NCBI GenBank assembly: GCA_966243015.1
Contig: CBIMES010000001.1
Location: 1-48,597 of the forward strand
Length of the DNA stretch: 48,597 nt
Direction: 5' to 3'
Source of the DNA: an uncultured bacterium
GTDB lineage: Bacteria; Patescibacteriota; Minisyncoccia; Phycocordibacterales; UBA6065
In this document: one piece after another, positions 28,117 through 29,823 of the stretch
How the letters are laid out: the number at the start of each line of letters is the position of its first letter
Position numbering within the stretch: position 1 is the first letter of the stretch
The notes under the pieces: model-generated
Seen by the model: only the letters and a program-made list of their open reading frames with translations
What the model was told of the DNA's origin: nothing
Database searches by the model: none
Program-made: the position numbers and the translations under genes

Positions 28117-29823
28117 ATGTTTTTCCGAAAGCCTCTTATCGTCACCCATAACAGCCAGTTCCACGCGGACGATATTTGCGCCGTGGCAGTTCTGCATCTT
28201 GTCCTCAAGGGAAAATATCGCCTAATCCGCACGCGCGATCAGAAGATCATCAATTCCGCGGATTATGTCGTTGACGTGGGTGGCGTCTACGACGTCTCGC
28301 GTCAGCGCTTTGACCATCATCAGAAGGGTGGGGCGGGCGAGAGGCCTAATGGCATTCCGTATGCCGCCTTCGGTCTCGTCTGGAAGGAGTACGGTGTCAT
28401 GCTGACGGGCTCGGATGCCGCGGCGCAAAGCATCGATGACAATATCGTCGCCCCCTTTGACGCGTCGGACAATGGCTTTGATATTGTCGACCTGCGCGTG
28501 AAGGGCATATCTCCCTTTAGCTTTTCTCATTACCTCACTGCCCTTAATCCTTCGTGGGACGAGGCACAGGACTTCGATGGTCAGTTTGTTAAGGCTGTGA
28601 ATGCCGCGATTCCCATGTTGAGACGGGCGATTGAGCGCGCGGTTGAGGCAGAGAGGGGCAAGAAGCATGTCGAGGATGCCTACCAGAAGGCCGAGGACAA
28701 GAGAATCATTGAGCTCGACGGACAGTATCCGTGGCGAGAAGTGATGCTCTCTCATCCCGAGCCCCTTTTCATGGTTCGCAAGAGTGCCGAGGGAGGTACC
28801 TGGGGCGCTCGAGCGGTGCCGGCCGAAGAGACGGGTTTTGCGAATCGAAAGGATTTTCCGGCGGAGTGGGCGGGGCTGTCGGGCGAAGAGCTTGCCCGTG
28901 TTTCCGGTGTGCCCGATGCGACGTTCTGCCATGGCAAGAGGTTTCTCGCCGTCGCCAAGACAAGGGAAGGGGCGCTTGCGCTTGCGAGGAAGGCTCTCGG
29001 CGACGCCCCCTCTTCGAAGTCGGGCTTTACCCTCATCGAGCTTCTTGTCGTCATTGCTATCATCGCGCTTCTCTCGAGCGTGGTGCTCGCGAGCTTGAGC
29101 TCCGCGCGAGAGAAGGCTCGTCTCGCCGCCGCGCGCCAGTTTGCGGCGGGTACCTATCGTGCCATAGGGGACAGGGCCGTGGGGTCATGGACTTTTGACG
29201 AGTGCTCGGGGTCCACAATCGGCGACTTGTCTGGTTCTGGAAACACGGGTACCGGCCCTTCCGCCGCATGGTCATCCGACACGCCTTCGGGCCTCGGGTG
29301 CTCGTTCACGTTCTCGGGAGGATATTTCAATACAGGAATAAGCAACATGCCTGCCCTTGATGCGCCCAAGACGATCAGCGCGTGGGTGAAGTACACGGGG
29401 ACGCCGGGAGGCAGCGTATTCAATATGTTCTCTGGAGGAAGCGCTGGAGTGCAGTTCGGCTTTCGTGGAACCACGGGCTTCGCCACATGGAGGTGGGGAG
29501 GCAGTATCCTCGTGCAGCTGCCGTCCCTGTTCTCGGCTGACGTCTGGCATCACGTTGCCTATGTGTTTGACGGCACGAATCACGTTCTCTACGTGGACGG
29601 GTCGGAGAGAGCTCGTGCTACGGGAGCAAACCAGACAGGGTCGGTCACTGCCGCCTCGGTTGGCGGTTCGGTCTACGACAATCTGGCGGGATCACTCGAC
29701 GACGTTCGCGTCTACACTACGAGCCTGACGGCGTACGAGGTTCAGGGAGTCTATGCCGAGGGCATGGCGCGCCATGAATCCTTTGCCGTTGGTTCTGAAG
29801 AGGGTCGCTTTCGCGCAAATTAA
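28117..29823 (+). CDS. Single ORF fusing a MYG1/UPF0160 (DHH-like metal-dependent hydrolase) domain (aa 1-~295), a type IV prepilin signal (KSG|[16 protein letters not shown], Gly303/Phe304 at 29023-29028) and a LamG/ConA-like pilin domain
   Basis: 568 aa uninterrupted frame. N-terminal [13 protein letters not shown]...FDHHQ (MYG1 motifs). An internal class III signal with Glu+5. The C-terminal part shows features typical of Laminin_G_3 pilins ([10 protein letters not shown]...LYVDG...GSLDDVRVY). Confidence 0.75.

Follow-up and report, generated by a model that had tools for sequence, protein, structure and literature searches.

We analysed a stretch of 48,597 nucleotides (nt) of DNA (the window; contig CBIMES010000001.1) from an ultrasmall bacterium, a Paceibacteria-type patescibacterium, in which one open reading frame (ORF) joins an enzyme of the MYG1/UPF0160 family to a type IV pilin carrying a LamG domain. 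This ORF starts with an ATG, contains no internal stop and encodes 568 amino acids (aa). The Pfam MYG1_exonuc match covered residues 8-294 of the protein (profile 2-318/318, E=1.2e-67) and was followed, in the same frame, by N_methyl at residues 300-324 (32.5 bits for a cut-off of 21.2) and by Laminin_G_3 (PF13385) at residues 415-543 (E=2.5e-21). The NCBIfam model TIGR02532 IV_pilin_GFxxxE reached 30.9 bits for a cut-off of 16.3. The original prediction, made from the letters of the window, had described a complete MYG1 domain running without any stop into a class III (prepilin) signal with Gly at -1, Phe at +1 and Glu at +5, and then into a LamG domain. Pfam, NCBIfam and the ORF itself agree with this description, the signal being intact by PF07963 and TIGR02532. 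The features of the locus are the following:

28117..29823, plus strand: fused ORF, MYG1 domain, linker, class III signal and LamG pilin, 568 aa
28117..29004, plus strand: MYG1/UPF0160 (DHH-superfamily) module, residues 1-296, full-profile Pfam match
29005..29025, plus strand: linker APSSKSG, residues 297-303, ending in the Gly-1 of the cleavage site, from the DNA alignment with the sister locus L008
29014..29088, plus strand: class III (prepilin) signal motif, residues 300-324, PF07963 and TIGR02532 above their cut-offs
29026..29820, plus strand: mature pilin moiety, residues 304-568, 265 aa, 79% identical to the standalone pilin P0121
29359-29745, plus strand: LamG/ConA-like head within the pilin moiety, Pfam residues 415-543, PF13385
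29822..29850, plus strand: intrinsic-terminator-like hairpin and U-run, RNA fold of -14.5 kcal/mol, z=-3.75

The two halves of the fused protein

The length of the MYG1 module (296 residues) is the complete length of its close standalone homologs (296-297 aa), all of which terminate, in the alignment, exactly at the position of D296. The profile PF03690 scored 229.3 bits for a cut-off of 22.1, and the PDB chains named MYG1 exonuclease matched residues 6-294 at E=9e-33. Every one of the 27 invariant positions (at least 95% conserved among 169 homologs) is retained, and the His/Asp motifs H11, H16, D18, D53, D66-H67-H68, D115 and D118 are kept. From its sequence, the MYG1 half looks intact. The sole characterised member of this family is the eukaryotic Myg1, a 3'-5' RNA exonuclease, the bacterial members being uncharacterised (PMC6582341).

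In the same way, the mature pilin showed 79% identity to the standalone pilin P0121 (267 aa) of the sister locus. The residues F+1, T+2, L+3 and E+5 are invariant across 40 members of the pilin family, in which position -1 is Gly or Ala, and the window protein has all of them; its recognition elements are Lys -3, Gly -1, Phe +1 and Glu +5. The cleavage-site Gly/Ala and Phe+1 of every aligned pilin fall on G303 and F304. The predicted scissile bond is thus G303|F304, with the Glu of position +5 at E308 and the hydrophobic alpha1N segment, of about 21 residues, following. Since the C-terminal 272 residues match standalone pilins (best E=5.5e-134), the prepilin signal is no chance motif; a six-frame scan found it once in the window. 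What departs from a usual prepilin is the place of the motif, which does not lie at the N-terminus after a short hydrophilic leader, starting instead at residue 300 with no start codon of its own.

The AlphaFold2 (AF2) model of the pilin half alone exhibited a 48-residue alpha1 helix and a beta-sandwich head, with a predicted local distance difference test score (pLDDT) of 89.8 and a predicted TM-score (pTM) of 0.82. Searched with Foldseek, the head retrieved carbohydrate-binding or lectin-like jelly rolls (E down to 3e-10), the closest solved folds being AbnA domain 4, a trans-sialidase lectin domain and clostridial neurotoxin binding domains. PF13385, the AF2 model and Foldseek together place a ConA-like/LamG sandwich on the C-terminal side of the pilin helix. 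LamG pilins form a large family; for four of them (P0404, P0411, P0430 and P0447) the longest contig listed has the same 1,188,223 bp, a sign that one genome may carry several LamG-pilin paralogues.

The G+C content at third codon positions is alike in the two halves of the ORF (0.66 and 0.67), and a scan for promoter and terminator consensus sequences at the junction gave nothing informative. The terminator-like hairpin begins at the last two bases of the stop codon of the fused ORF. A hairpin of similar form (-16.7 kcal/mol, z=-6.2) stands at the same place after the pilin of the sister locus, so that the pilin, fused or not, terminates the holin-like/MYG1/pilin unit.

Reality and origin of the fusion

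An exact-protein look-up returned at least 10 contigs that encode this 568-aa protein without any difference; they come from several samples and were assembled by two pipelines. Contigs of 0.2-1 Mb with the gene are also on record. The at least 10 contigs include the ENA assemblies ERZ27394172, ERZ27393765 and ERZ27393303, with SPAdes-style node names and differing coverages, and the Logan run-level assemblies SRR16817056 and SRR16817059. The gene order is the same on all contigs carrying this product. The DNA identity to the window was 100% for three loci (L002-L004) and 99.8-99.97% for two others (L001 and L005); L001 departs from the window at a few positions, in SecA and at two isolated sites, and the fused gene is free of such changes. 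In every sample holding this organism no allele but the fused one was seen, and it appears fixed in the sampled population.

Three-frame translation over 28900-29100 revealed no alternative arrangement of stop and start that a single-base indel could restore, and a one-base frameshift was thereby ruled out as the source of the fusion. The fusion is real and is not an assembly error. Coverage is low in some of the assemblies (about 3-5x by the contig names) and the basis is the assemblies themselves, points in favour of a sequencing or assembly artefact that joined two genes; but at least 5 separate assemblies, made by two pipelines from different samples, contain the same fused sequence, the other two frames offer no start able to feed the pilin, and the difference from the unfused sister locus is the absence of both stop and start with a net shortening of 33 nt in frame, not a one-base or homopolymer indel. 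Such an artefact is extremely improbable. Elsewhere in the window, at 22448-22468 in SecA, a short patch rich in indels and substitutions separates it from the 99.8%-identical L001, and represents strain variation or a low-coverage assembly error.

The sister locus L008 is a 26.6-kb Logan contig carrying P0121, the closest pilin relative (267 aa, 79% identical, E=5.5e-134). It is collinear with the window over genes for a Wzy_C/TPR protein, MurB, SecA, iPGM, a small hypothetical protein, enolase, holin_4_2, MYG1 and the pilin. The last two are separate genes:

9083-9973 of L008: MYG1, 296 aa, separate gene ending ...GAA GCT TAA
10001-10804 of L008: pilin, 267 aa, separate gene with the leader MKSAVTKG

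The spacer between the TAA of MYG1 and the ATG of the pilin is 27 nt long (cgtatttactcgtggtatcgtagacgc) and contains no in-frame stop; consequently, the pilin of L008 is already in the frame of MYG1, with a single TAA between the two ORFs. Its start reads ATG AAA TCG GCC GTC ACT AAA GGC TTC, giving MKSAVTKG|FTLIELL. Read-through of the TAA in L008 (9971-10003) would already yield a fusion protein. At the position of this TAA the window has no stop (GGC GAC GCC), the position of the ATG aligns to TCG in the MAFFT alignment, and the junction of the window is 33 nt shorter, which equals the TAA, the 27 nt and the ATG. A single in-frame deletion would suffice arithmetically, the leader and spacer being too diverged for one event to be provable.

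In this close relative, the components are therefore separate, adjacent and co-oriented, as a gene fusion calls for; the original prediction had proposed looking for such separate genes in relatives, and L008 supplied them, in the same frame. On the comparison of the two loci, the fusion is a derived, lineage-specific product of two adjacent co-directional genes. The ancestor had, as L008 has, a 296-aa MYG1, a TAA, a stop-free 27-nt spacer and the ATG of a 267-aa LamG type IV pilin in the same frame. In the window lineage the stop, spacer or leader DNA and the start were then lost (net 33 nt), leaving MYG1, APSSKSG and the mature pilin. By the same comparison, APSSKSG is a leftover of the intergenic spacer, of the pilin leader or of both. 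Of the choice offered by the original prediction, between a new architecture and a one-base assembly error merging adjacent genes, the merging of two adjacent genes holds; the artefact falls with the contigs (at least 10) and the 33-nt change, and nothing supports an established or selected architecture, given one population, no recurrence and no pilus machinery in the window.

The synonymous divergence (dS) between the window and L008 is about 0.6-1.6. Their MYG1 sequences are 77.7% identical and their pilins 78.8%, with a ratio of nonsynonymous to synonymous divergence (dN/dS) of 0.083 for the pilin; among the housekeeping neighbours identity is 84-97%. In relative-rate counts of the Tajima type, made with 8 outgroups for MYG1 and 6 for the pilin, 3-14 changes were unique to the window and 8-19 to L008, and the fused branch was no faster than the L008 branch in either half. 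To judge by these sequences, the intact halves exclude long-standing decay and are compatible both with a function that has been maintained and with a very recent event.

Only one near-clonal population carries the fusion. An exhaustive HMMER run with the full-length protein, over 1.84 billion cluster representatives, retrieved no further MYG1–pilin fusion. A junction-centred search (residues 200-400) gave no match covering more than 61% of the query and none joining PF03690 with PF07963. It did find closer standalone MYG1 proteins, nearly all of 296-297 aa and with 71-84% identity over the aligned segment; a shorter standalone MYG1, P0383, has 202 aa. When GTDB representative genomes and JGI metagenomes were scanned with the fused protein, only distant LamG matches and no close relative appeared. 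Both L008 proteins (about 78% identical) escaped a word-indexed search with the full-length query and came up easily in later ones, so that negatives from one such search call for caution. Conservation across divergent lineages, which would indicate selection, was not seen for the fusion.

Some candidates did not hold. P0240 and other matches of more than 1000 aa were rejected as junction-spanning, being multi-LamG repeat proteins without MYG1. The C-terminal tail of P0001 (KKCFRWLEVAIFELFL) was rejected as a degraded pilin signal, the DNA showing a stop there and Obg 12 nt later.

In the relatives, a conserved block runs through iPGM, a hypothetical gene, enolase, holin_4_2, MYG1, a slot, Obg, GatB, DUF192 and RNR. 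The slot between MYG1 and Obg holds:

L033: empty
L006: empty; MYG1 stop, 12 nt, Obg
L032: minus-strand acyltransferase
L034: 141-aa hypothetical gene
L029-L031: peptide deformylase
L008 and the window (29824-29890 region): LamG pilin

From these gene orders, the MYG1–Obg position is a variable accessory slot inside a conserved block. The pilin therefore took up this place before L008 and the window diverged, in their common ancestor, and became fused in the window lineage only. A 47%-identical pilin, P0123, has an unrelated context with a TIR/SEFIR neighbour.

Topology, processing and competing explanations

As the original prediction had proposed, the full-length protein was modelled. The AF2 model exhibited two independent modules (pTM 0.48), with the last MYG1 helix at 283-294 and the pilin alpha1 helix at 306-353. 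The segment 296-304 is the only inter-domain one with a pLDDT below 50, so that about 11 flexible residues make up the linker in which the predicted scissile bond G303|F304 lies. In the alignment used for this model, the MYG1 rows were reduced and window fragments were added, so that both sets of homologs were placed correctly; mixed MAFFT alignments of the fusion with both sets (A2 and A4) had placed pilins on the MYG1 half and were discarded. The proposed topology, in which the pilin helix spans the membrane between a cytoplasmic MYG1 and an external LamG domain, is consistent with the AF2 models and with pilin biology (PMC10191384).

The class III signal is recognised by the signal recognition particle (SRP) and delivered to Sec, and the prepilin leader stays cytoplasmic by the positive-inside rule. 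On the cytoplasmic face of the membrane, where its active site lies, the prepilin peptidase cleaves behind the conserved Gly without the help of other proteins (PMC10191384; PMC6497953), efficient processing depending on the Gly at -1 (PMC6497953). Type IV pili are reported to be well conserved in Patescibacteria (PMC11623550). The MYG1 domain of the fusion would fold in the cytoplasm, the emerging alpha1N would be inserted by SRP/Sec as a type II signal anchor, and the LamG head would be exported. The prepilin peptidase would cut G303|F304 in the short flexible linker at the cytoplasmic membrane face, freeing an ordinary mature pilin as well as a soluble MYG1 that keeps 7 extra residues as a tail, and the fusion would be a two-product polyprotein. 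If cleavage fails, a bitopic membrane protein would result, and the pilus would have to do without this copy of the pilin. The product is most likely a type II membrane precursor that the prepilin peptidase may split into free MYG1 and normal pilin; we put cleavage at roughly even odds.

Taken together, the data support, with a probability of about 0.6, a real, derived, lineage-specific in-frame fusion, a two-product precursor if cleaved, that is most likely young and near-neutral. Neutrality is what we infer from these observations, and a selected functional coupling is disfavoured. Several points weigh against this interpretation. A literature search gave no precedent for prepilins with very long leaders or N-terminal fusions. 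Prepilins are not known with a leader close to 303 aa, nor with a folded domain 7-11 residues from the scissile bond, and such a domain could sterically block cleavage. No prepilin peptidase or pilus assembly gene (PilD, PilB, PilC, PilM) lies within the 48.6-kb window. The population is near-clonal, with no variation in the fused gene, and the intact halves could merely reflect recency. Additionally, the independence of the assemblies was deduced from accession numbers and coverage values.

A rival view is that the fusion is a dead end, in which the bulky MYG1 blocks cleavage, bars this pilin copy from the pilus and persists as a bitopic protein with MYG1 inside and LamG outside, a first step to losing a redundant pilin paralogue, tolerated since the genomes carry several LamG pilins. 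Only about 7-11 flexible residues lie between the last MYG1 helix and F304, the fusion is a singleton without divergent relatives, the LamG-pilin family is large with several paralogues suggested per genome, the MYG1–Obg slot is accessory and variable, and membrane-tethered MYG1 is known elsewhere (P0006, P0024). Yet stops and frameshifts are absent from the pilin half, its amino-acid changes are not in excess relative to L008, the recognition elements (Lys -3, Gly -1, Phe +1, Glu +5) are intact, and the fused allele alone was seen in every sample holding the organism. We give the dead end a real but minority chance, well short of even. It is improbable that the protein is a giant-leader prepilin under selection, in which the peptidase would free active MYG1 in a 1:1 ratio with insertion of the lectin pilin, or in which MYG1 would stay tethered until cleavage; if true, it would set a precedent, that of a folded enzyme set free by a class III signal peptidase.

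A shade less probable still is an adaptive architecture in broader terms, in which the release of MYG1, stoichiometric or gated by the peptidase, would be tied to the making of pilin, or in which a membrane-anchored nuclease would bear an extracellular lectin sensor. Both modules are fully intact, the allele appears fixed in the sampled population, and the constant neighbourhood of MYG1 and a small membrane protein gene, together with the TVP38 fusions of other lineages, hints at a membrane-related role. These points are set against a single near-clonal lineage, a nearest relative (L008) that keeps the genes apart, the lack of recurrence in 1.84e9 representatives, and a pilin that was inserted as an accessory gene into a variable slot and is not known to be linked functionally to MYG1. 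The fusion could also be only apparent at the protein level if the pilin were translated separately from a site in the 3' region of MYG1. Genes here have no obvious Shine-Dalgarno sequences, which makes start signals hard to predict, and an in-frame GTG stands at codon 265 (window 28909, VPDATF...). The original prediction had named this GTG as the nearest start upstream of Gly303, with no closer ATG, GTG or TTG, and this holds, although the distance is 38 codons and not 31; the sole rarer start candidate is a CTG at codon 254. Separate translation of the pilin is very improbable, as GTG265 lies inside the conserved SGVPDA motif of MYG1 without a recognisable ribosome-binding site, would give a 39-aa leader of MYG1 sequence, and is followed by none of the three start codons up to Gly303, the ancestral ATG position aligning to TCG.

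A young, near-neutral fusion would be of modest biological weight, because each module is of an ordinary kind within a large family, and the joining of genes by loss of a stop codon is familiar in evolution. Its value is that of a clean and datable example of the birth of a fusion, from same-frame neighbours that stand one stop codon apart in a sister genome. It also offers a natural substrate for the limits of N-terminal cargo tolerated by the prepilin peptidase and the SRP/Sec route, with a folded leader of 303 residues, more than 10 times any described leader. If cleaved, it would mean that class III signals can be viewed, and used, as internal processing sites of polyproteins; if not, it would show how accessory pilin paralogues vanish from reduced genomes. 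For annotation, the fused ORF should not be split or flagged as a frameshift. The fusion is probably a young evolutionary accident rather than an established protein design.

Neighbouring genes and comparison with known systems

The gene upstream of the fused ORF, described in the original prediction as a DUF360/holin-like gene 15 nt away, does end at 28101, at that distance from the ATG:

27766..28101, plus strand: Phage_holin_4_2/DUF360 gene with 4 transmembrane segments, 111 aa, Pfam PF04020, E=1.4e-24

It stands directly before MYG1 in the window, L006, L008, L029-L032, L034 and L035, the contig of L033 starting too near MYG1 to show it. From this adjacency in every relative examined, the holin-like gene is probably in the same transcription unit as MYG1.

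Other observations concern the rest of the window. At 25830-26327 (plus strand), between iPGM and enolase, lies a 165-aa ORF without a Pfam match; it is only 28% identical to its L008 counterpart (181 aa), with flanking genes at 94-97%, and represents a hypervariable small gene at a fixed position. A mechanical ORF of 604 aa at 26383-28197 (minus strand) was rejected as a gene, since it prolongs the 428-aa enolase (26383-27669) too far upstream, across the holin-like gene and the beginning of the fusion, both of which lie on the other strand. The window also encodes two large membrane proteins with TPRs, at 17813-19984 and 38294-40666 (both plus strand), the first with a Wzy_C (O-antigen ligase-like) domain. 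The Wzy_C family includes pilin O-glycosyltransferases, and by analogy a link of this protein to pilin modification is possible. The 675-aa protein encoded at 15766-17793 (plus strand) has weak TrwB/VirD4, TraG-D_C and HerA-type ATPase matches, and may be an ATPase resembling coupling proteins, such as have been discussed for the type IV secretion system of Patescibacteria (PMC12102498).

Compared with the MYG1/UPF0160 family, the window protein has the same full-length Pfam and PDB matches and keeps the conserved metal-binding-type motifs, but its C-terminus runs on into a membrane helix rather than stopping at residue 296. A covalent joining of MYG1 to a membrane-embedded segment is shared with the TVP38/SNARE_assoc–MYG1 fusions of other Patescibacteria (P0006, P0024 and P0276; 506-525 aa). 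In those, the membrane domain (PF09335) is N-terminal, polytopic and recurrent across several clusters, whereas the window fusion has a C-terminal pilin with a predicted cleavable signal and is a singleton. Since such natural fusions exist, a membrane-proximal or tethered MYG1 is tolerated. The PF09335–MYG1 fusions and the holin_4_2/DUF360 gene directly before MYG1 in all relatives examined hint at a membrane-associated role of bacterial MYG1.

On the pilin side, the standalone LamG pilins of Patescibacteria (PF07963 and PF13385, about 255-290 aa, P0121 for example) share the alpha1N segment, the LamG head and the genomic position after MYG1. Every aligned member begins with Met, and most leaders have 3-8 residues; in the window pilin the leader is the entire 296-aa MYG1 plus 7 residues, with no start of its own. 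In type IVb and other long-leader prepilins, likewise, a hydrophilic cytoplasmic leader ends in Gly before alpha1N and is removed by the prepilin peptidase (PMC10191384), but those leaders are tens of residues long and unstructured, against 303 residues including a folded enzyme here. The leaders of Streptococcus sanguinis called very long in PMC10191384 have at most 18 aa (range 8-18 aa; PMC6497953).

The PilC protein of S. sanguinis has the same succession of a class III signal, a short pilin moiety and a ConA-like/LamG beta-sandwich, and its grafted ConA-like lectin module binds glycans (PMC9934059, PMC6497953). No sequence homology between the window pilin and PilC is detectable, and PilC is larger, has an extra Ig-like module and carries a short leader within the 8-18-aa range of S. 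sanguinis. By analogy, the window LamG pilin may work like this modular lectin pilin, with putative glycan binding. The pilin half is an ordinary member of the large Patescibacteria family of LamG-module pilins and the MYG1 half an ordinary MYG1/UPF0160 protein; only their covalent arrangement, with a class III signal placed after a 296-aa enzyme, is new.

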